Shown: positions 8,776 through 61,052 of the stretch, in pieces | How the letters are laid out: each line of letters starts with the position of its first letter | Position numbering within the stretch: the stretch's first letter is position 1 | Origin: Minisyncoccota bacterium | GTDB taxonomy: Bacteria > Patescibacteriota > Minisyncoccia > Phycocordibacterales > UBA918 | Direction of reading: 5' to 3' | Assembly: GCA_041389045.1 (NCBI GenBank) | Contig: JAWKSQ010000002.1 | Location: forward strand, 23,898-87,897 | DNA length: 64,000 nt | The notes under the pieces: generated by a model | Databases searched by the model: none | Seen by the model: the letters and a program-made list of their open reading frames with translations, nothing else | Told to the model about the DNA's origin: nothing | Position numbers and translations under genes: made by a program

Positions 8776-10041
8776 TTAACCAATCACCTCCTTACCCATA
8801 AATGGTCTAAGGGCTTCTGGTACTACAATCGTGCCGTCGGCTTGTTGGAAGTTTTCAATCAGTGATACCAAGATACGTGGCGTCGGAATAGCAGTACAGT
8901 TGAGTGAGTGAGCGTAACGCATCTTTCCTTCCGCATCGCGATAGCGAATATTGAAACGCCTAGCTTGGAAGTCGTGGAAGTATGAAGCAGAACTAATCTC
9001 ACGATAAGTCTGTTCACCTGGAACCCAAAGTTCGATGTCGTACTTCTTTACCTGTCCCTGACCAAGGTCACCACCACAATTAAGGACGGTTCGATACGGA
9101 ATACCGAGGGATTCAATAAACTCTTCCGTGTTACGGTTTATCCATTCGTGTTGCTTTACACTTTCTGCGTGTGAAGCTTCACAAAGTACTACTTGCTCCA
9201 GCTTGAAAAATTCATGCACCCGAATGAGACCCTTAGTGTCTTTACCGTGACTACCAGCTTCTCGACGGTAACAAGGAGAGAACGCCAAAAATTTAATTGG
9301 GAAATCTTTAGCGTCAAGAACTTCATCACTGAAGTAACCCATCGTAGACACTTCACTGGTACCAATCAGATAGTCATCATCTTGAGTTCGATAAACATCG
9401 TCGGCATCATTTGGTAGATGCCCAGTTCCATAAAGATTACTCTTTCGTACGATTGAAGGAACGAGGAGTGGTTCAAAACCTTTATCTAAGAAAAATTTAT
9501 TAGCGTAGTTCCAGATCGCCCAAGAGAGCCTGGCCCCATCACCGCGTAGATAGTAGCCACGAAAGCCGTGTACCTTCACCCCGCGTTCAAAGTCTGCCAA
9601 CTTATGTTTGGTCATAAGTTCGACATGGTCTTTGGCTTCAAAATCAAACTTAGTCTGGTCACCCCAGAGTTTGATTTCTAAGTTATCAGCATCACTCTTA
9701 CCGTCTGGTACCGACATATCAGGAATGTTTGGCACCTGAAGCATTATTTTTTGCCACTCTTCCATGACAGTCTTTAGACTTTCTTCTTCCCGTTGCATTT
9801 CAGTCTTTAGGGACTGCATTTCGATAATGAGCTTATCGCGCAAATTGGCGTCAGCGCCCGAGCGAGCGATTTCAGCTGACACACGGTTTTGTTCAGCTTT
9901 CTTAGTTTCAAGCGCAGTCATTTTGGCCCGTCTTTCGTCGTCCACCACCAAAAGCCTATCTATATCAACTAAAATCTTTTTCTTCTCCGCTGCTGACTTT
10001 ACAATATCGGCGTTTTCTCGAATAAATTTAATATCTAACAT
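8776..10041 (-). CDS. serS: seryl-tRNA synthetase
   Basis: MLDIKFIREN start, a coiled-coil arm, and class II motifs (FRGYYL, CYRREAGS, GGDLG). Confidence 0.95.
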   Translation of the reverse strand: MLDIKFIRENADIVKSAAEKKKILVDIDRLLVVDDERRAKMTALETKKAEQNRVSAEIARSGADANLRDKLIIEMQSLKTEMQREEESLKTVMEEWQKIMLQVPNIPDMSVPDGKSDADNLEIKLWGDQTKFDFEAKDHVELMTKHKLADFERGVKVHGFRGYYLRGDGARLSWAIWNYANKFFLDKGFEPLLVPSIVRKSNLYGTGHLPNDADDVYRTQDDDYLIGTSEVSTMGYFSDEVLDAKDFPIKFLAFSPCYRREAGSHGKDTKGLIRVHEFFKLEQVVLCEASHAESVKQHEWINRNTEEFIESLGIPYRTVLNCGGDLGQGQVKKYDIELWVPGEQTYREISSASYFHDFQARRFNIRYRDAEGKMRYAHSLNCTAIPTPRILVSLIENFQQADGTIVVPEALRPFMGKEVIG

Positions 10042-16479: not shown

Positions 16480-16721
16480 ACAAACAAAATAAATATAATT
16501 ACCCCCGCAAGTACCCAAACTTGCTTGATTTAACTATTCTAACACATTTAGAATCGCCTCCCTGTTTATAACTTTCCAGTTTTCTGCTAGACTGTCACAC
16601 ACCGCCGCGGTGACAGTATAAAAGTAAACTGCTTTACTTTTATACGTTTCGCCAAGGCAACAGTGGACGATACGAACCTAGCGAGTCAGTTCACAAAAAA
16701 TCAAATTTTTGTTTTCAAAGT

Positions 16722-16831
16722 GCCGGAGTGGTGGAATGGTATAACGGTTCGATAGTCTCCCAGACTATCTCACCTCAAAAATCGTGTGCCGCAAGGCTTG
16801 AGGGCTAAAATAGTCTGGGAGACTATTTTAG
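16722..16831 (+). pseudogene. degenerate tRNA-Leu-like copy with paired CCC/GGG-loop hairpins
   Basis: It shares GTTTTCAAAGTGC(C/T)GGAGTGGTGGAATGGTATA and TGCCGCAAGGCTTGAGGG with tRNA-Leu(CAA). It carries ATAGTCT-CCC-AGACTAT (16752-16768) and CTAAAATAGTCT-GGG-AGACTATTTTAG (16805-16831) in place of a proper anticodon stem and T arm. Confidence 0.55.
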
Positions 16832-16932
16832 AAGGTTGCCAGCAAATTTATGACAAAAAGGAATAAATTGGTGACAACCTGAACAGAATTCGTAGAATTC
16901 AAGTCCCTTATAATATAGTTCGTTTTCAAAGT

Positions 16933-17013
16933 GCTGGAGTGGTGGAATGGTATACACGTGCGACTCAAAATCGCATGCCGCAAGGCTTGAGGGTTCAAGT
17001 CCCTCCTCCAGCA
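16933..17013 (+). tRNA. tRNA-Leu(CAA)
   Basis: GCTGGAG...TGCGA CTCAAAA TCGCA, a long variable arm, GAGGG TTCAAGT CCCTC, CTCCAGC A. No CCA is encoded. Confidence 0.9.
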
Positions 17014-17042
17014 CTTTGAACGAGAACATATCCAATAATATT

Positions 17043-17945
17043 GTGAAAGAAACAAAGCCTAAAATCGTCGCCATCGTAGGGGCAACTGCTTCCGGTAAGA
17101 CTTCCCTTTCTATCGACCTGGCGAAGGAGTTTTCTGGTGAGATTATCTCCGCTGATTCTAGGCAGGTCTATAAAGAACTAGACATTGGCACAGCTAAAGT
17201 AACTCAAGAAGAAATGTCGGGCGTACCACATCACCTTATAGATGTAGTTAATGTAGACACTGTCTTCACTGCTCATGATTTCAAAACCCTAGCCAACCAA
17301 GCTATAACTGACATTCAATCTCGAAACAAACTACCGATCATAGTTGGTGGCACCTTCTTTTACCTTGACCAACTCCGTGGTACGTCGGGTGTCGCAGACG
17401 TAGAACCAAATCCAGAACTACGAGCAGAGCTAGAACAACTATCTCTAGAAGAACTACGAACCAGAGTCGCCACTTTCGACCGTACCCTACTCGAAACTTT
17501 GGAAATTGAAAACCCGCGCCGACTCATGCGAGCTATTGAGATACTTGAAGCCCTTGGTCACATCCCAAAACCCACAGTAGTGGAAAGTCCCTATGATTGG
17601 CTGATAATTGGATTAAGTGTAGAAAAAGAAGAGTTACGATCCCGCTACCGTACACGAGCCACTTCCTGGCTTGAGGTCGGTTTTTTGGACGAAATATCGA
17701 CACTTTTAAAGAAAGGCGTTAGTGAAGCCAGGTTACAAGAAATTGGTTTTGAATATACGTTAGGTCTTAGTCTTCTCAAAGGTGAAATTACTGAAACTGA
17801 ATTTATCGACAAGTTTGAACAAAAAAACTGGCAATACGCCAAACGACAACTACTTTGGCTTAAACGCGACAGTGACATAAAATGGTTCAAACCAGAACAA
17901 AGAACTGACATATTCACTACCGTAGAATCATTTTTACACAATTGA
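17043..17945 (+). CDS. miaA: tRNA dimethylallyltransferase
   Basis: P-loop GATASGKTS, DSRQVYKELDIGTAK. The upstream part of the ORF overlaps the tRNA, so the start is taken at the in-frame GTG 17043. Confidence 0.85.
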   Translation: MKETKPKIVAIVGATASGKTSLSIDLAKEFSGEIISADSRQVYKELDIGTAKVTQEEMSGVPHHLIDVVNVDTVFTAHDFKTLANQAITDIQSRNKLPIIVGGTFFYLDQLRGTSGVADVEPNPELRAELEQLSLEELRTRVATFDRTLLETLEIENPRRLMRAIEILEALGHIPKPTVVESPYDWLIIGLSVEKEELRSRYRTRATSWLEVGFLDEISTLLKKGVSEARLQEIGFEYTLGLSLLKGEITETEFIDKFEQKNWQYAKRQLLWLKRDSDIKWFKPEQRTDIFTTVESFLHN

Positions 17946-18011
17946 TTTTATTACTCTTTTCACCTACTATGTATCCACCTTGCGTAAATCAACGCTAGGC
18001 AAAATAACGAA

Positions 18012-18081
18012 GGGCCTATAGTTCAGTGGTAGAATCCGGTTTCCAAAACCGTTGACCGGGGTTCGAATCCTCGTGGGCCCG
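18012..18081 (+). tRNA. tRNA-Trp(CCA)
   Basis: GGGCCTA TA GTTC AGTGGTA GAAT CCGGT TTCCAAA ACCGT TGAC CGGGG TTCGAAT CCTCG TGGGCCC G. It is 70 nt (position 26 missing, variable loop of 4 nt). No CCA is encoded. Confidence 0.8.
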
Positions 18082-18130
18082 CTCGAGTAAAACGAAAACA
18101 CTTTGACACTGTCAAAGTGTTTTCGTGTTA

Positions 18131-18262
18131 GAAAGCAAATAGTTTTGCTTTCGTGCTCGAGCGGGAGACGGAGACATGTCGCTTTTCGACAGTCGAGTCG
18201 GGGTCGAGAACACTTAGTAGATTTAGAGCGAAGCGAATAAATATACTTAGTGATTCGTGACC
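18131..18262 (+). repeat. tRNA-linked mosaic structured repeat, unit A
   Basis: Conserved hairpin GAAAGCAAATAGTTTTGCTTTC, then CTCGAGCGGG (18156-18165), which is the reverse complement of the tRNA-Trp end CCCGCTCGAG (18077-18086). The core is GGGGTCGAGAACACTTAGTAGATTTAGAGCGAAGCGAATAAATATACTTAGTGATTCGTGACC. Confidence 0.8.
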
Positions 18263-18425
18263 GCAAAAAAGTGGACACAATGTATCCCGTTCCTGTAAGG
18301 AAAGAATCCTCGTGACCGCAAGAAAGTGGCCACAAGGTGTACTGGTCGTGTAACGACCGAAATTCTTCGTTAGTACTTAGTAGAATTAGAGCGAAGCGAA
18401 GAATTATACTTAGTAATTTGTGACC
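18263..18425 (+). repeat. mosaic repeat, unit B (beta segment plus second core)
   Basis: GTTCCTGTAAGGAAAGAATCCTCGTGACCGC, followed by GTACTTAGTAGAATTAGAGCGAAGCGAAGAATTATACTTAGTAATTTGTGACC. Confidence 0.75.
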
Positions 18426-18452
18426 ACAAAAGAAACTACACCAGATACCGGA

Positions 18453-19310
18453 CTACCTCATATCCGCATGAACATGCTTAGCCTCAATGAGTACGTAGTG
18501 GAAGCCAGCATCCCTAGCTAACTGTGCTACTTGAGCCAGTGTTATACCATTAATAGGTTGAAAATCGATCGCGGTGCCTTTGTAATGTTGACTATTTGCA
18601 CTGTGTCCCACTCCTTCGGTATAAGCAGCGGTAACTTGGAACGGTTGCTTACCATATTTCTTCAAACCTTCTTCCTGCATTTTCTTGGCCGCAGCTGCAG
18701 CGTCGACGTTTGCCTTATCTGTCCTACCTGGTCCATTGGTACCATGCCATGAGGCAACATTAAGTCCCATAGCACTTAGACTTGTCATACCGGAAGGATC
18801 GACAGGTGCACTGGGCACACCTGGCACCGGGACTACTGGCTCAGCTTTTTCATTTTTTAAATCTTCTGGTAAAATAGTCACTGTCTGTACCATACACTTC
18901 ACCTCTGACCAGGGACCCCAACCAGAAATCTCACCTACCGGCTGACCGGTATCACCACCTCCGACTAAACCTCTCATGATCGTGTCGACGATGAGCCAAG
19001 CTGACATCATGATTAAAAGACCAATCATGGCATTAGTAAACTTTGACTTAGCGGCTTGCAAAGCAGAAGTATTACCACCGGAAGTAACCAAACCAAAGCC
19101 AGCCACCACCATCAAAACAGCAAAAATCATAAAGACGATACCAAACAACCACACTATCACTTCATTCACCAGACTAGCTAAGCTACAAGCACTACAATCT
19201 GTACCGCTACAAGTCACAAAACGACTCTGCGCCATAGTAAGTGTCGGTAACAACCAAATACCTAAAAACAATGTTAGCGGGACCACCAAATGAAACATAT
19301 TTAGTATCAT
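18453..19310 (-). CDS. fusion protein: TrbC/VirB2-like (CPR T4SS-pilin-like) membrane domain plus M15-type peptidoglycan peptidase domain
   Basis: The N-terminus has a signal/TM segment, a Cys cluster (CSGTDCSACS), two TM helices and LIVDTIM, like the neighbouring 129-aa paralog. The C-terminus has GHSANSQHYKGTAIDF...HVHADM, which fits the SxHxxGxAxD...H zinc D,D-peptidase signature as I recall it. Confidence 0.65.
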   Translation of the reverse strand: MILNMFHLVVPLTLFLGIWLLPTLTMAQSRFVTCSGTDCSACSLASLVNEVIVWLFGIVFMIFAVLMVVAGFGLVTSGGNTSALQAAKSKFTNAMIGLLIMMSAWLIVDTIMRGLVGGGDTGQPVGEISGWGPWSEVKCMVQTVTILPEDLKNEKAEPVVPVPGVPSAPVDPSGMTSLSAMGLNVASWHGTNGPGRTDKANVDAAAAAKKMQEEGLKKYGKQPFQVTAAYTEGVGHSANSQHYKGTAIDFQPINGITLAQVAQLARDAGFHYVLIEAKHVHADMR

Positions 19311-19377
19311 AAAATTTATTATTACTTATATTTAAACACAGAAATGTCAAAAGGTGACCTGACTTTAAGCACAGTTA

Positions 19378-19767
19378 TTATGAGCACATTAAAGCATTCC
19401 AAACGCCATATTCAGAACCAGGAATAATTAACTTAAGAAAAGTATCAACAATCATCCAAGAAGCCAGTAAAATCATATACCCCACAATAGCGGTAGAAAT
19501 TATTTTTCTAGCCCCAGTCTTGGCTGACACATTACCGACTGCAGTACCCATCCATAGTCCAGCCACCACAATAGTCAAAACCACAAAAACACCTGACACC
19601 AGCACAAACCAATCAAAACCATTTTTTATTAGTTGTCCAAACTCGCAAAAACCACATTCATTAACCATTTTTCCGTCTACCACCTTTGGGTCACAAGGTA
19701 CAATCCCGGCCGCCAAACTAAGGGCTGGAAAAACCAATAAGACAAAGAAAAAAATTACTTTTGCCAT
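19378..19767 (-). CDS. TrbC/VirB2-like pilin-like small membrane protein
   Basis: Signal peptide, a CxxC-containing loop (CGFCEF), two TM helices and WMIVDTFLKL. Confidence 0.65.
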   Translation of the reverse strand: MAKVIFFFVLLVFPALSLAAGIVPCDPKVVDGKMVNECGFCEFGQLIKNGFDWFVLVSGVFVVLTIVVAGLWMGTAVGNVSAKTGARKIISTAIVGYMILLASWMIVDTFLKLIIPGSEYGVWNALMCS

Positions 19768-19863
19768 GTTATCCTAATAGTATCACCTCCCTGGTTTGAA
19801 AACTGCAGAGAGTGTGGTAATTTATACCTTACTTACGGCTAGTAAGTGATGAAATGAATAATT

Positions 19864-20020
19864 GCGTCGGTACGGAAGCGGAAAGCGGGGGCAAACTGTA
19901 AGACTTGCACTTTGCGCACCGGGAAGTCTTTCTGACAGCGTTGTTTCCCACCGGAAACACAGTTTAAAGTCGCTACACGCGACAAGTCAGTAAATCTTTT
20001 CGATTCCCAGTCTTCTTTGG
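19864..20020 (+). pseudogene. degenerate tRNA-Tyr-like copy
   Basis: GCGTCGGTACGGAAGCGG...GGCAAACTGTAAGACTTGC parallels the tRNA-Tyr 5' half and its GTA loop. About 90 nt of hairpin-rich insert follows (GTTTCC-CACC-GGAAAC), then a T-loop remnant TTCGATTCCC. No acceptor 3' strand is present. Confidence 0.45.
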
Positions 20021-20057
20021 TTATTCAAAAGTTGTGAAGTGATACAATTAAATAAAT

Positions 20058-20140
20058 GCGTCGGTACTCAAGCGGTCAACGAGGGCAGACTGTAAATCTG
20101 CTGGCATCAGCCTACGAAGGTTCGAATCCCTCCCGGCGCA
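20058..20140 (+). tRNA. tRNA-Tyr(GTA)
   Basis: GCGTCGG...GCAGA CTGTAAA TCTGC, a long variable arm, GGTTCGAATCC, CCGGCGC A. No CCA is encoded. Confidence 0.9.
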
Positions 20141-20172
20141 CATTAGAAGATAAGGCACCTTTAGGTGCTTTT

Positions 20173-20334
20173 TCTAATGTGCGCCGGAGCAAGCAAATAG
20201 TTTTGCTTGCTTGAGGGATTCAAAAGCGCAGCGATGCCGAAGGCGAGCGAGCTGGGGTCGAGAGTACTTAGTAGAATTAGAGCGTAGCGAATAATTATAC
20301 TTAGTAACTCGTGACCGAATCCTTTCCTCCCGGC
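20173..20334 (+). repeat. tRNA-linked mosaic structured repeat, unit C (archetype)
   Basis: TGCGCCGG (20180-87) and GAGGGATTC (20213-21) are the reverse complement of the tRNA-Tyr 3' strands. They are split by AGCAAGCAAATAGTTTTGCTTGCT. The core ends in CTCGTGACC (20316). GAATCCTTTCCTCCCGGC (20317-34) follows. Confidence 0.85.
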
Positions 20335-20481
20335 TTAGATAGAAATATTATCTTTTAATATAGCCACATTTTATAAGAAAATGTTTGCAAACACTTGACA
20401 TTTTGAATAAATAATTGATTATATCTGCAGACAGGGAGTCGAGGATCTCAATAAAACCTCATCATTGAAAAAGGTTACGAA

Positions 20482-35025: not shown

Positions 35026-35361
35026 ATGTCAGACAGACACATTAGAGTTGAATCCTTACTGCGCGAACTAATTGCTGCTTTTGTACAGCAGGAAGCCAAC
35101 GCTGACCCCATGATCACTATTACCAGGACTGCCTCTGCCCCTGACTATCGTCGCGTCACGGTCTTTTTCACTACCATTCCTGATGGTCGTGAAATTGACG
35201 CCTTAAACTTTCTTAAGCGCACCGGTAGTGAACTGCGAGGTTATATCAAGAAAAAAAGTAATCTAAAGATTATTCCCTTTTTAGAATTTAGTGTGGACTA
35301 TGGTGAAAAACACCGTCAACACATTGATGAAATAGCTAAAGAGATTGACGATACAAAATAG
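35026..35361 (+). CDS. rbfA: ribosome-binding factor A
   Basis: 111 aa located immediately after infB, with an RbfA-like pattern (RVESLLRELIA...ITITRTASAPDYRRVTVFF). Confidence 0.8.
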   Translation: MSDRHIRVESLLRELIAAFVQQEANADPMITITRTASAPDYRRVTVFFTTIPDGREIDALNFLKRTGSELRGYIKKKSNLKIIPFLEFSVDYGEKHRQHIDEIAKEIDDTK

Positions 35362-35425
35362 TTTGTACTAAGTGGGTTTTGTTTTAAGGGTCTAAAGATG
35401 GTAAAGTAGTGCGTACAGAAATTAA

Positions 35426-35497
35426 GTCCTGGTGGCGAAGTGGTTAACGCTCGCGGTTTGCAAAACCGCCACACGTGGGTTCGACTCACTCAGGACT
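35426..35497 (+). tRNA. tRNA-Cys(GCA), T arm non-canonical
   Basis: GTCCTGG...GCGGT TTGCAAA ACCGC...GTGGGTTCGACTCAC TCAGGAC T. The T loop appears 2 nt short. Confidence 0.6.
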
Positions 35498-35526
35498 CAC
35501 GAAATAGAAGCCTTGGCTTTTATTTC

Positions 35527-35699
35527 GTGAGTCCTGGAGCAATGCGCCTGCGCGCATTGCGGGTGGGAGTCGAACAGCGGAGTCATGTTGGGGCTTTTCA
35601 TTAAGCCTCAACAGACGAGCTGCGTCCAGCGTACTTATGAGCGTAAGCGAATTAGTAAAAGCGGGACGACTCCAAGTGACCGACTCCCATTAGGGACAG
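35527..35699 (+). repeat. tRNA-linked mosaic structured repeat, unit D (divergent core)
   Basis: GTGAGTCCTG (35527-36) is the reverse complement of the tRNA-Cys end CAGGACTCAC. The hairpin GCAATGCGC-CTG-CGCGCATTGC follows, then GGGAGTCGAAC. The core is GCGGAGTCATGTT[GGGGCTT..AAGCCTC]...GTACTTATGAGCGTAAGCGAATTAGTAAAAGCGGGACGACTCCAAGTGACC. Confidence 0.7.
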
Positions 35700-35721
35700 G
35701 GTTAGCTTATAGCCTACCCAT

Positions 35722-35804
35722 GCCCAGATGGTGTAATTGGTAGCCACGCAAGACTTAAAATTTTGTGTCACAAGGCCGTGCGGGTTCAATTCCCGCTCTG
35801 GGCA
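35722..35804 (+). tRNA. tRNA-Leu(TAA)
   Basis: GCCCAGA...CAAGA CTTAAAA TTTTG, a long variable arm, GCGGG TTCAATT CCCGC, TCTGGGC A. Confidence 0.9.
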
Positions 35805-35847
35805 CCTATAGAAGTAAACAACCACCGGACTTAGGTCCGGTGGCTTT

Positions 35848-36450
35848 GGTTCATCCTAGTCGGATGAACCATCTGCCGGCTTAAGCCGGCTGATCTGTAG
35901 TTGCTAGGAGATTAGTTTGTTAAATAGTGATGGTTGATCAACTTGATTATGATGATCTTGATGCTTCACGTACCGACGGATAATCATTTCATCTAGACCG
36001 ATCGTAGAGACGAAATAACCTCTGGCCCAGAGTGATTCTTTTTCATAGAGACCATGAGCACGTTTTATTTTCTTCTTCATCCAAGCTGAGCTTTTACCTT
36101 TAATTATTTGCATCAGGTACGAGACTGAATCCCTCGGAGAAGCACTCAGTATTAAGTGGATATGATCATCTTGGATGTTTAGTTCGATTATTTCCCAGTG
36201 TCTGTATTTAGTGATTGATTCAAAAGTACGTCTCAATTCATCTTTAACCTTTTGTGGTCCTAGTACCTTGCCTCGGTATTTTGGAGTCCAGACGAGATGG
36301 TATTTCATCTCGTAGTAACAATGTGCTAGTGTTTTAATGGTAGGTTTGCGCATACGTATTTAGTTATTACTAAAGCCAGTTGGGCGTCACCGGCTTTAGT
36401 ATATCTGTTGCCTTCAACGTACTCTCTGGCTGAAGCCGGAGGTTTTTAGA
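35848..36450 (-). mobile_element. IS200-type insertion sequence (approximate ends)
   Basis: A single Y1 transposase gene is flanked by subterminal hairpins of related sequence: GCCGGCTTAAGCCGGC (35875-35890) and GGCTGAAGCCGG (36431-36442). Further hairpins are GGTTCATCC..GGATGAACC and TACTAAAGCC..GGCTTTAGTA. The exact ends were not determined. Confidence 0.6.
35904..36353 (-). CDS. tnpA: IS200/IS605 family Y1 (HUH) transposase TnpA
   Basis: Contains YHLVWTPKYRGKVL, HUH (DHIHLIL) and the catalytic-Tyr region WARGYFVSTIG. Confidence 0.95.
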   Translation of the reverse strand: MRKPTIKTLAHCYYEMKYHLVWTPKYRGKVLGPQKVKDELRRTFESITKYRHWEIIELNIQDDHIHLILSASPRDSVSYLMQIIKGKSSAWMKKKIKRAHGLYEKESLWARGYFVSTIGLDEMIIRRYVKHQDHHNQVDQPSLFNKLIS

Positions 36451-36489
36451 TAATAAAACAACCAGCTAAAAGCTGGTTGTTTTATTTCA

Positions 36490-36619
36490 GGTGCCCAGAG
36501 CGGGAATTGAAAGGCGGAGCGATGTGAGCTTGCGAACCAGCGAGCCGGGGTCGAGAACACTTAGTTGATTTGGAGTCGAAGACGAACAAATCTACTTAGT
36601 GATTCGTGACCAATTCCCG
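36490..36619 (+). repeat. tRNA-linked mosaic structured repeat, unit E
   Basis: GGTGCCCAGAGCGGGAATTGAA (36490-36511) is the perfect 22-nt reverse complement of the tRNA-Leu(TAA) end (35785-35806). The core is GCGGAGCGATGTGAGCTTGCGAACCAGCGAGCCGGGGTCGAGAACACTTAGTTGATTTGGAGTCGAAGACGAACAAATCTACTTAGTGATTCGTGACC, followed by AATTCCCG. Confidence 0.85.
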
Positions 36620-36630
36620 TGTATTGCTAG

Positions 36631-36724
36631 CGGGAATTGAAGAGGTTAGTCAGATACCTTAGGAACACTTGGACTAAAGTATCGACAACCTGTACTGAAC
36701 TCGTAGAGTTCAATTCCCTACCAC
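36631..36724 (+). repeat. degenerate second unit E2
   Basis: CGGGAATTGAA ... GAACACTTGGACTAAAGTATCGACAACCTGTACTGAACTCGTAGAG ... TTCAATTCCCTACCAC. The E+E2 block is bracketed by the 19-nt exact direct repeat AGCTGGTTGTTTTATTTCA (36471-36489 and 36730-36748). Confidence 0.6.
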
Positions 36725-36878
36725 TGCATAGCTGGTTGTTTTATTTCATATACATAGAATGAGGGGATAAAACTCTATTGGGCTTTTTTATAAAGAACCC
36801 ATAAATCCTTGACACACCCCTAACATTCCCATAGTCTAAGTTTTGGCCTAGTTTTTTGTAACCAACTGGAGACATGTC

Positions 36879-37286
36879 ATGACACAATTAACATACTTTG
36901 TTGTAGAAGGTATATATGGCAGGTGCAAATCATTGACAATAGACCAGGTAAACAAGGAAATTTCCTTATGCAGACCTGGCCAATTGCTACTTTCCAACAA
37001 AGTGAAAGACCCAAACAATCTTGTCCGTAAAATGAAAGATGAGGAGAGGATTCTTTTACCATTCGACAATTCCATCCTGCGGGTGATCTCAAAAAATGAT
37101 TACGAGGGAATGGAAGACTGGGAATTATTTTACGGTACGTACTCAAAACAACAAAGGTTTAGGGTCCCAAATCCGAAATGGGAGCATGTAAGGGTTATCT
37201 CAGACGGTGCTTGTGACACCATAATCCTTTCGCAGAAGGAAGTCTTTCCAGGCTCTTTTACCCCAATAGCGACGACAGTTTCATGA
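36879..37286 (+). CDS. hypothetical protein
   Basis: 135 aa with GGAGA 8 nt upstream of the ATG. No motif recognised. Confidence 0.55.
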   Translation: MTQLTYFVVEGIYGRCKSLTIDQVNKEISLCRPGQLLLSNKVKDPNNLVRKMKDEERILLPFDNSILRVISKNDYEGMEDWELFYGTYSKQQRFRVPNPKWEHVRVISDGACDTIILSQKEVFPGSFTPIATTVS

Positions 37287-37395
37287 GAACTATACTCATC
37301 ACCGATAGCTCACCTCCTTGGTGGGCTGTCATTAATTTAGACATATCGAATCTGGCCTTGTTTTAACAAAATATTTATTGTACACTTCTTCGCAC

Positions 37396-37468
37396 GCGCC
37401 TTTAGCTCAGTTGGTAGAGCAGCTCCCTCTTGGAGACGGTCCAAGGTTCGAGCCTTGAAGGCGCACCA
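37396..37468 (+). tRNA. tRNA-like gene (Lys-CTT-like) with encoded CCA and non-canonical anticodon and T loops
   Basis: GCGCCTT TA GCTC AGTTGGTA GAGC A GCTCC CTCTT GGAGA CGGTC CAAGG TTCGAG CCTTG AAGGCGC A CCA. It has a 5-nt anticodon loop and a 6-nt T loop. Function is doubtful, or indel errors are present. Confidence 0.4.
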
Positions 37469-37960
37469 AGGTGAATACAAAAACACTGGTTTTTTAAACC
37501 AGTGTTTTTGTATTCAGGAAGCAAACTGCTTTGCTTTCGTACCTTGGTGCGAGTCGGAGACATATTTCTTTTCTTGCCTAGAAAAGAAATAGTCGAGACC
37601 GGGGTGAGAAAGTGTCTAAACACTTTCGCAAGACCTTTTGAGAAATTTATTTCCAAAAGGTGTATCGCTTCTGTAAGAAGAAAGTTCTTATGAGCGTAGC
37701 GAATTAGAAACTTGACCCCGCAAAAAACTGCCACCCGGCAGTTTTTTAATATGTGCGCCTTCAAGGTGTAGCTTTTCGTTAAGAAAAGCGTTACACGGCT
37801 CGAAAAGCTTTTGCGATAGATTCGACTGAAAGGAGAATATATCCAAAAGGTGTACAGTTCCTGTAAGGAAAGAGCCATTGTTTTTATGTATTGTGTAGAA
37901 ATAATTATATTAAGTAACTCGTGACCACAAAGCGTTACACGGCTCGACATAAAGAAACCC
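37469..37960 (+). repeat. composite mosaic repeat region F
   Basis: A 17-bp perfect hairpin is followed by GAAGCAAACTGCTTTGCTTTC. CCTTGGTGCG (37542-51) and GTGCGCCTTCAAGG (37753-66) are both reverse complements of the tRNA-like 3' end. The short core variant is GGGGTGAGAAAGTGTCTAAACACTTTCGCAAGACC. Beta segments AAAAGGTGTA...CTGTAAG(G/A)AA(A/G)A occur twice. The terminal sequence is TAAGTAACTCGTGACC. Confidence 0.7.
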
Positions 37961-38017
37961 TTTCTGACTCATAAACGAGAATGGTCCAGAAATAAATTTT
38001 CTGGACCAACCGATTTG

Positions 38018-38099
38018 TGCGCGGGAGAGGACTTGAACCTCCACAGATTGCTCTATTAGTTCCTAAGACTAACGCGTCTACCAATTTCGCCACCCGCGC
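38018..38099 (-). tRNA. tRNA-Leu(TAG)
   Basis: Minus strand reads GCGCGGG TG GCGA AATTGGTAG ACGC G TTAGT CTTAGGA ACTAA, a long variable arm, GGAGG TTCAAGT CCTCT, CCCGCGC A. Confidence 0.9.
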
Positions 38100-38153
38100 A
38101 GGTGGATGTGCGCAAGAGTATAGCATATTATTATAAGTTTGCGAGAGTTTACC

Positions 38154-57330: not shown

Positions 57331-57340
57331 GCTTTGACTA

Positions 57341-57492
57341 GCAAAAATGCGAACCGCAAAGCGGAGCGATGTGAGTCGCCTCTTCCCAGGACGACGAACC
57401 AGCGAGCTGGGGTCGAGAACACTTAGTAGATTTCGCACGTAGTGCAGAAATATACTTAGTGATTCGTGACCGGTTCCTACTTTTGCGTTTGC
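57341..57492 (+). repeat. mosaic structured repeat, unit H1 (no tRNA nearby)
   Basis: The outer arms GCAAAAATGCGAACCG and CGGTTCCTACTTTTGCGTTTGC are complementary. The core is GCGGAGCGATGTGA[GTCG..CGAC]GAACCAGCGAGCTGGGGTCGAGAACACTTAGTAGATTTCGCACGTAGTGCAGAAATATACTTAGTGATTCGTGACC. Confidence 0.85.
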
Positions 57493-57518
57493 ATAATTAA
57501 AATAATTTAGCTTCCAAA

Positions 57519-57651
57519 AAAGCGGTGCCGACGGGCGTAGCGATGTGAACCGCCCCATCTTAGGGCGGTGAACCAGCGAGCCGAGTCGACAAGTACTTAG
57601 TTTTTTATGAACGTAGAGATATAAAAAGCTTAGTAACTTGTGACCGGTTCC
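57519..57651 (+). repeat. mosaic structured repeat, unit H2
   Basis: GCGTAGCGATGTGA[ACCGCCC-CATCTTA-GGGCGGT]GAACCAGCGAGCCGAGTCGACAAGTACTTAGTTTTTTATGAACGTAGAGATATAAAAAGCTTAGTAACTTGTGACCGGTTCC. Confidence 0.8.
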
Positions 57652-59316: not shown

Positions 59317-59388
59317 GGCCCTATCGTATAACGGCTAGTACACTTGGTTCTCATCCAAGAAATCGGAGTTCGATTCTCCGTAGGCACG
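59317..59388 (+). tRNA. tRNA-Glu(CTC) with a defective acceptor 3' strand
   Basis: GGCCCTA TC GTAT AACGGCTA GTAC A CTTGG TTCTCAT CCAAG AAAT CGGAG TTCGATT CTCCG TAGGCAC. The last 7 nt give 2 mismatches with GGCCCTA. The displaced copies read TAGGGTCAC, which would pair fully. Confidence 0.6.
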
Positions 59389-59426
59389 CGTACAAAAACG
59401 AGCATCTCGAAAGAGGTGCCGTTTTT
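59385..59426 (+). repeat. 42-bp direct repeat, left copy (tRNA-Glu end plus terminator)
   Basis: CACGCGTACAAAAACGAGCATCTCGAAAGAGGTGCCGTTTTT is identical to 61011-61052. Confidence 0.9.
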
Positions 59427-61010: not shown

Positions 61011-61052
61011 CACGCGTACAAAAACGAGCATCTCGAAAGAGGTGCCGTTTTT
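61011..61052 (+). repeat. 42-bp direct repeat, right copy
   Basis: Identical to 59385-59426. It is preceded by TTAGGGT, a remnant of the tRNA-Glu acceptor 3' strand. Confidence 0.9.

Follow-up and report, generated by a model that had tools for sequence, protein, structure and literature searches.

The 64,000-nt stretch of Minisyncoccota bacterium DNA analysed here (hereafter the window; assembly GCA_041389045.1, contig JAWKSQ010000002.1, positions 23,898 to 87,897 of the forward strand; 43.6% G+C) carries a tRNA locus in which the gene for tRNA-Leu(TAA) is separated by an insertion sequence (IS) from hairpin-forming modules that contain copies of the tRNA 3' end. Read along the plus strand, the locus comprises tRNA-Cys (35426–35498), the module that belongs to it (module D, 35499–35705) and tRNA-Leu(TAA) (35722–35806; identified by ARAGORN and scored at 56.4 bits by the Rfam tRNA model). 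The last ~22 nt of this tRNA (35785–35806, hereafter X) are the source of a copy in the downstream module: together with the adjoining non-tRNA base they have a perfect reverse complement on the plus strand, X', at 36489–36511, which gives a perfect 23-nt inverted repeat (I1; 35785–35807 versus 36489–36511) with 681 nt between its arms. Behind X' lie two further modules, E (36512–36620) and E2 (36621–36729), and an exact 19-nt direct repeat, AGCTGGTTGTTTTATTTCA (36471–36489 and 36730–36748), brackets this part of the locus. In 300 shuffles of positions 35300–37100 the longest inverted repeat reached 20 nt (mean 11.4; 23 observed) and the longest direct repeat 14 nt (19 observed). A previous reading made from the letters alone had named the transposase gene tnpA, the inverted 3'-end copy and the 19-nt repeat, and all of them are present at or near the places it gave; its 22-nt complement lying 684 nt downstream is indeed a perfect inverted copy, but one of 23 nt with 681 nt between the arms.

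The IS could be delimited by comparison with its relatives. A scan of one genome per species recovered 36 loci encoding relatives of the TnpA protein, most of them in metagenome-assembled genomes (MAGs) of Patescibacteria, with 37–93% amino-acid identity (at least 68% in 32 of the 36, and 93% for the window protein and that of locus L001). When the flanks of 16 related copies from Patescibacteria MAGs were aligned with the window copy, nucleotide homology extended from about 36447–36466 down to 35812/35813 and then stopped abruptly; the break at ...GGTGGTTGTTTACT| places the right-end terminus at 35813. On the tnpA strand, all aligned copies start with three to five unspecified nucleotides followed by AAAAACCTCCGGCTTCAGCCGGAG (an AAAAACC... 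start) and end in ...CCAAAGCCACCGGACCTAAGTCCGGTGGTTGTTTACT|. The alignment proposed by the sequence-only reading thus yields sharply defined ends and a complete IS of 640 bp that encodes tnpA only (35813–36452, minus strand); the IS200-type element it had recognised is there, at 640 bp and not the ~600 bp it had estimated.

All parts of the element are described here on the minus strand. Close to the left end is a subterminal hairpin, CCTCCGGC TTCA GCCAGAGG (36423–36442), in which 94.9% of the cells are paired across 14 copies and three of seven pairs show compensatory changes. It is followed by a 13-bp hairpin in the tnpA 5' leader, TACTAAAGCC..GGCTTTAGTA (36368–36401; inverted repeat I9), whose position is conserved in other copies and which resembles the stem-loop in the leader of Salmonella IS200, so that by analogy it might have a comparable function. 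The intact open reading frame (ORF) of tnpA (35904–36353) encodes a 149-residue Y1 (HUH) transposase (Pfam Y1_Tnp, E=6.9e-33) with a visible HUH motif (HIH, within DDHIHLIL) and a tyrosine in RGYFVST. Between its stop codon and the right-end hairpin are two internal hairpins (35847–35894; I12, I14 and DNA fold), TGGTTCATCC/GGATGAACCA and the palindrome ATCTGCCGGCTT/AAGCCGGCTGAT. The right-end subterminal hairpin, CCACCGGAC..GTCCGGTGG (GCCACCGGACC TAA GTCCGGTGGT; 35820–35845), hardly varies among 14 copies, with 98.2% pairing and a single compensatory pair, and after it comes the conserved terminus TTGTTTACT (35813–35821). Of the two related end hairpins that had been proposed from the letters, GGCTGAAGCCGG (36429–36440) falls in the left-end hairpin, while GCCGGCTTAAGCCGGC (35875–35890) is the second internal hairpin and not the right end. 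Folded as single-stranded DNA, the IS ends are far more stable than shuffled sequences (z=-4.2 and -9.0), and they present subterminal imperfect palindromes at both sides and no terminal inverted repeats. An Rfam match of the enterobacterial small RNA STnc370 over the left end and the adjacent host hairpin stays below threshold (41.5 bits, gathering score 54), and publications on this RNA gave no further clue.

The protein scores 123.7 bits against the NCBIfam equivalog model transpos_IS200 (cutoff 55), and its best matches in the PDB are 2ec2, 2f4f, 2a6m and 2xm3, the solved relatives being IS200-type, IS608 and ISDra2 transposases. The Y1 enzyme, the subterminal palindromes and the unduplicated target place the element in the IS200 group of the IS200/IS605 family.

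The target context is equally uniform. The tetranucleotide TTAT (IS top strand; 36453–36456, minus strand) lies directly 5' of the left end, and TTAY occupies this position in 16 of the 17 aligned copies, window included, the exception being L007. Just upstream of the left end, all 17 have a hairpin with a T-run; those of 13 copies were re-folded and range from -11 to -26.5 kcal/mol. Since the sequence of this upstream hairpin is different in each copy, it belongs to the host DNA and not to the IS. The sequences to the left and right of the element bear no relation to each other (TTAT| ... |TCTATA in the window), and the target is not duplicated. The family therefore sits directly 3' of host terminator-like hairpins, usually after TTAY. 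In the window the host hairpin is AATAAAACAACCAGCT AAA AGCTGGTTGTTTTATT (36452–36486; I5), colinear with positions 9300–9345 of the related locus L039. Such a habit is already on record: a survey found terminator-like sequences immediately upstream of IS elements, most strongly for IS200/IS605 (PMC13548323), and Salmonella IS200 has a bidirectional terminator at its left end (PMC4513863). The window provides a clean example of it. An 18-nt imperfect repeat (35807–24 versus 36447–64, 78% identical) was considered as a target duplication and rejected, because the first copy is the conserved right-end terminus of the IS and the second the host hairpin arm with its T-run; the similarity arises because the right end (hairpin plus TTGTTTACT) resembles the type of site that is targeted.

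Removal of 35813–36452 restores the interrupted locus. The distance between the tRNA end and its complement falls from 681 to 41 nt, the host hairpin comes to lie 6 nt after tRNA-Leu(TAA), and the reconstructed site folds as DNA into an 88-nt near-perfect hairpin (-48.5 kcal/mol, z=-16). The same arrangement of tRNA-Leu(TAA), hairpin and module, free of any IS, was found in L039, L160/L161, L166, L040 and L077, and the reconstructed site is colinear with that of L039 (..GAGATAAAACACC..GGTGTTTTATTTTGG). Judged by the identity of IF-2, which in the window is 100% identical to that of P0001, L039 (84%) and L160/L161 (83%) are related to the window genome; L038 (92%) ends right after rbfA and gives no tRNA locus. 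Look-ups for exact matches to the TnpA, RbfA and ORF135 proteins of the window yielded no record. The search for an uninterrupted locus that had been suggested from the letters was thus successful, and an IS200-type insertion between tRNA-Leu(TAA) and its anti-3'-end module, as proposed there, is borne out by the fixed ends, the recovered 41-nt spacing with its continuous hairpin and the IS-free relatives.

By its family membership, the element would have moved by single-strand "peel-and-paste" transposition, for which PMC5027513 describes a circular single-stranded intermediate in IS200/IS605. Integration took place 3' of TTAT, at the 3' foot of the terminator-like hairpin, in a locus where that hairpin leads directly into a module beginning with the reverse complement of the tRNA 3' end. 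The insertion split the 88-nt near-perfect palindrome (tRNA 3' end, hairpin, anti-3' end) and pushed hairpin and module 640 bp away from tRNA-Leu(TAA). With this, the right-end hairpin of the IS came to adjoin the tRNA, where it may act as a substitute for the displaced native terminator. This right-end hairpin is terminator-like on both strands; on the tRNA strand (35822–35843, plus) it is followed by CTTTGGTT and lies 16 nt past tRNA-Leu. The presence of the element at this locus is explained by the preference of its lineage for hairpin-plus-T-run sites, which are abundant in tRNA/module arrays; there is nothing unusual in this insertion, which brought a new IS200-group member to a typical site.

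The modules on either side of the IS follow a common plan. First comes a tRNA ending in X, its last ~19–22 nt, which span the T-loop through the first base beyond the discriminator; then a locus-specific terminator-like hairpin; then X', which reverse-complements X exactly and is in some cases interrupted by a conserved small hairpin at the boundary between acceptor and T-arm; and finally a conserved core and a further X in sense orientation. What X' complements beyond the tRNA is the next genomic base and not CCA, and it is a perfect complement even where the real acceptor stem contains a wobble pair. It is therefore an inverted copy of X made at the DNA level and neither a copy of the tRNA 5' half nor a primer-binding site for a mature tRNA. 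Module E consists of a variable hairpin, the core (36545–36611) and part of the T-arm repeated in sense, AATTCCCG (36612–36619), and matches the covariance model of the core, R1, with 74.7 bits (E=3.8e-17) on the plus strand and 20.5 bits on the minus strand. E2, also on the plus strand, is of a second type, with a second X' AGCGGGAATTGAA (36629–36641), CGACAACCTGTACTGAA, the hairpin GAACTC-GTA-GAGTTC (36697–36711) and the sense copy TTCAATTCCC (36709–36718; repeats D5, D7, I8 and I17); further modules of this type lie behind tRNA-Glu and ahead of tRNA-Leu(CAA) and tRNA-Gln. Module D of tRNA-Cys (I2), with its own hairpin, X', diverged core (weak R1 match at 35619–35668) and sense copy, is not part of the IS and has orthologues in L039 and L162.

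These elements are widespread. The core pattern matched at least 120 metagenome stretches and none in a scan of viral contigs, and among the matches listed, tRNA ends on the same strand lie 86–336 nt upstream of the core in 46 of 80 loci, with at least 16 isotypes represented. In the core hairpin, 93% of the cells are paired, ten of 23 pairs show compensatory changes, and one G.U pair is nearly invariant (36 of 37 sequences); the covariance model gives 75–90 bits on the tRNA strand versus 20–29 on the other. The case for strand specificity is based on this G.U pair and on the asymmetry in bits. The variable hairpin shows no strand bias (G.U versus A.C counts of 17 and 23). In sum, the modules are structured elements that covary, are specific to one strand and follow tRNAs of at least 16 isotypes. 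They also follow the sequence of their own tRNA: where the T-loop reads TTCAATT (window and L166), X' and X contain GAATTGAA and CAATTCC, and where the orthologous T-loop reads TTCGATT (L039 and L160), they contain GAATCGAA and CGATTCC.

No counterpart was recovered from existing collections. Against Rfam 15, no match in the window other than those to tRNAs attains its gathering score, and there is no meaningful match at E<=1 over 16650–20400 or 35400–38150; our literature searches found no paper describing the modules. The group I tRNA introns of Patescibacteria (PMC13011429) were considered and rejected, given their location in the anticodon loop and the lack of any intron in the Rfam scan of this DNA.

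Other core types occupy the same X'/X frame, among them E2, the module of tRNA-Glu, the pseudo-tRNA copies ahead of tRNA-Leu(CAA) and tRNA-Gln, and the modules of Falkowbacteria (L014). L055 (2382–2760) and L064/L100 contain arrays of the form X-hairpin-X'-coreA-X-hairpin-X'-coreB-X, in which two unrelated core types share the same clamps derived from tRNA-Gly; the cores of these arrays behave as though they were interchangeable cassettes, with the clamps around them staying constant. Elsewhere in the window, two tandem cores (R1 scores of 82.8 and 54.1 bits) follow the ftsZ terminator at 57340–57650 with no tRNA nearby, and no neighbouring tRNA is the source of their clamps, GAACCG/CGGTTC. 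Directly upstream of tRNA-Leu(CAA) (16722–16925, plus) and of tRNA-Gln (~2765–2960, minus) stands in each case a degenerate copy of that tRNA; in both copies, a hairpin takes the place of the anticodon arm and an insert of ~90 nt sits exactly between the 5' strand of the T-stem and the T-loop. The Leu(CAA) copy has two replacement hairpins with complementary loops (CCC/GGG).

We then turn to the 19-nt repeat, which the sequence-only reading had correctly identified as the 3' half of the local terminator hairpin. Copy 1 (36471–36489, plus; direct repeat D3) is the 3' arm of the host hairpin at 36452–36486 followed by TCA, and copy 2 (36730–36748, plus; D3, D7, I4) is an orphan 3' half of that hairpin. 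Ahead of copy 2, TTCAATTCCC is a copy of the T-loop and T-stem of the tRNA (D7), and the segment 36709–36748 reads as a degenerate copy of "tRNA 3' end plus hairpin" with its middle deleted. Direct repeats of this composite unit bracket modules at other places: a perfect one of 42 nt at the tRNA-Glu of the window, and others of at least 66 nt in L064/L100, at least 39 nt in L165, ~50 nt in L014 and 17 nt in L162. The 19-nt X alone serves as the flanking repeat in several loci, for example L048, L053 and L056. The IS did not create the 19-nt repeat, because the two copies do not enclose it and members of the IS200/IS605 family insert without duplicating their target. The orthologous E/E2-like blocks of L039 and L160 are without it; the repeat is therefore lineage-specific, younger than the block and not the footprint of E and E2 arriving as a unit. 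Most likely it is what remains of a duplicated junction unit of tRNA 3' end and hairpin; duplicative insertion could have produced this second unit, and so could unequal recombination within the array.

At tRNA-Glu, the perfect 42-nt repeat (59385–59426 and 61011–61052) comprises the tRNA end and the terminator hairpin and brackets 1.6 kb that contain a module and ORFs, among which a Pfam scan found no integrase and no other domain. Within this segment, TAGGGTCAC stands at both ends of a stretch of ~1.44 kb, which looks as though the displaced tRNA end had received a second insertion.

Taken together, the locus is probably the product of two separate things: an IS200-group element carrying only tnpA that inserted at the foot of a host hairpin, and a 19-nt repeat left over from a junction unit, with no link detected between the transposase and the modules. 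Several observations weigh against this account. The left-end terminus, at ~36451–36452, can be placed only to within 1 nt (TTAT|T or TTATT|). The left end of the window copy also has a C.A mismatch in its hairpin and a 1-nt deletion relative to the family, and in view of this damage the element may no longer be mobile. As regards the repeat, an intact second copy of this hairpin at the locus was seen in no relative examined; L039 has a different, complete terminator there and L160 has none. Lastly, two IS-bearing genomes, L165 and L166, also carry modules.

Among the alternatives, the one that fares best, yet which we regard as improbable, is that the 19-nt repeat is a true target-site or att duplication produced when E and E2, or the last unit of the block, were inserted by whatever process spreads the modules. 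The repeat is exact and flanks the block precisely, and long perfect repeats of "tRNA 3' end plus hairpin" flank modules at independent loci with locus-specific hairpins, as duplicative insertion would leave them. The repeat named in the earlier proposal is real, and with these parallels around other modules its interpretation as an insertion signature is partly supported. Against it stand the blocks of L039 and L160, which show that the block predates the repeat; moreover, the degenerate T-arm copy in front of the distal 19-mer fits a decayed longer duplication better than a clean one of 19 bp, and unequal recombination between array units would generate the same pattern. A clean empty site lacking the E/E2 block was not found among the relatives examined.

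Far less probable is the idea, likewise raised from the letters, that the Y1 enzyme, domesticated or acting in trans, mobilises the tRNA-linked modules in the manner of REP-associated tyrosine transposases (RAYTs) or PATE elements, and that its place between modules D and E reflects this. Enzymes of this type recognise single-stranded DNA hairpins and the modules are rich in hairpins; a second copy of the IS family, in L014, lies directly after the hairpin of a tRNA-module array, and the genomes of L165 and L166 contain both. The L014 placement is, however, what is expected of a hairpin-seeking IS in hairpin-rich arrays, and the protein itself points elsewhere: TnpA reaches only 39.4 bits against the NCBIfam model REP_Tyr_transpos (cutoff 80), well short of its IS200 equivalog score, and its PDB matches at E<=1 include no RAYT structure, from E. 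coli or otherwise. Its gene is enclosed in a complete IS with conserved ends of its own, known from 36 loci, and is not flanked by inverted REP/BIME copies. A blastn-short comparison of the left and right IS ends with 80 module loci (408 kb, among the matches listed) and with the window matched none of these loci and, in the window, only the IS itself, and no tnpA was found in the same 408 kb. Conversely, R1 gave a single weak match (25.8 bits, in L003) over the 36 IS loci (264 kb), against six strong ones in the window. Modules D and E are in direct and not inverted orientation and each matches its own tRNA, the module boundaries contain no TTAY-type site, and seven related loci have modules at this tRNA cluster, whether or not their genome carries the IS elsewhere. 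No link between transposase and modules was found, and the RAYT- or PATE-like proposal, including a reading of the modules as MITE derivatives of this IS, is not supported.

Weakest of all is the notion that the second 19-mer works as an alternative long-range partner (36729–36745) for the 5' arm of the hairpin (36452–36468), enclosing E and E2 in a terminator/antiterminator-like switch: the 17 nt are 100% complementary across 260 nt (I4), but this pairing is conserved in no relative examined and the IS now separates the tRNA from the region.

Having preferred an ordinary IS insertion beside a junction-unit remnant, we consider the element itself of little weight, a precisely delimited Patescibacteria lineage added to the IS200 group. 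It is nonetheless useful as a natural marker, showing that tRNA, hairpin and module belong together and that the long palindrome tolerates interruption. The bracketing repeat belongs to the biology of the modules, which are the interesting part of the region. Our tentative proposal, which we put forward with somewhat less than even confidence, is that they form an undescribed, strand-specific structured family (tRNA-sense RNA or single-stranded DNA) in which a conserved, covarying core is clamped between inverted and direct copies of the last ~19–22 nt of the host tRNA; that they track that tRNA over evolution; and that they multiply by a duplicative process whose footprint is a direct repeat of "tRNA 3' end plus hairpin", the 19-mer being one instance. 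If this were true, whether as functional RNAs mimicking tRNA ends or as a new tRNA-anchored mobile element, they would be a real addition to the biology of bacteria with reduced genomes.

Two further observations concern the tRNA genes of the neighbourhood. The gene at 37396–37468, which ARAGORN reports as "tRNA-???", is a tRNA-Lys(CTT) with encoded CCA that lacks 2 nt of the anticodon loop (CTCTTAAGGAG in L037 versus CTCTTGGAG here), either a pseudogene or an assembly error. In relatives whose tRNA-Leu(TAA) is of the other sequence type (GCCGGGGTGGCGAAATCGG...), the tRNA gene is abutted or overlapped by a free-standing ORF of ~160–165 residues with a weak HNH_3 match (L162, 5779–6273; L164, 5524–6018; L165, 6032–6517), which hints at endonuclease-driven replacement of alleles.

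Compared with known systems, the IS is closest to IS200 of Salmonella and E. coli and IS1541 of Yersinia, with which it shares a length of ~0.6–0.7 kb, a single Y1 tnpA, subterminal hairpins without terminal inverted repeats, insertion without a duplicated target, a hairpin of terminator type just ahead of the left end and a stem-loop within the leader of tnpA (PMC4513863). It differs from them in its Patescibacteria host and in the upstream hairpin, which in the window lineage varies from copy to copy and is host DNA. IS608 and ISDra2 share its Y1 HUH fold (2a6m, E=2e-18; 2xm3, E=5e-14), the insertion 3' of a short conserved sequence and, by analogy, cleavage sites that would lie at a fixed short distance from the subterminal hairpins. 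The target of IS608 is TTAC, that of the window lineage TTAY; unlike these elements, the window IS has no tnpB, and its target is consistently beside a hairpin and T-run. Group IIC introns also prefer hairpin-plus-T-run sites, with different enzymes and chemistry. ISPpu9, an IS that targets REP sequences, has a similar preference for palindromic or hairpin-forming extragenic sites, again with different enzymes and chemistry (PMC8450116).

The modules invite two comparisons of their own. REP/BIME systems with RAYTs likewise place a Y1 enzyme near repeated, hairpin-forming extragenic elements (PMC3333891), but TnpA falls short of the RAYT model, there is no inverted repeat pair around tnpA, the hairpins share no sequence, and the modules are composites of 130–250 nt tied to tRNA 3' ends, against 20–40 nt for REPs. 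The tRNA 3' ends displaced by integrases resemble the modules in that the last ~19 nt of the tRNA, from T-loop to discriminator base, recur exactly at the far side of an insert. No integrase domain was found in the few ORFs scanned next to modules. In contrast to integrase-displaced ends, the module "insert" measures only ~130–250 nt, begins with the same tRNA end in inverted form and holds a hairpin that is conserved and covarying, and the repeat often reaches into the locus-specific hairpin.

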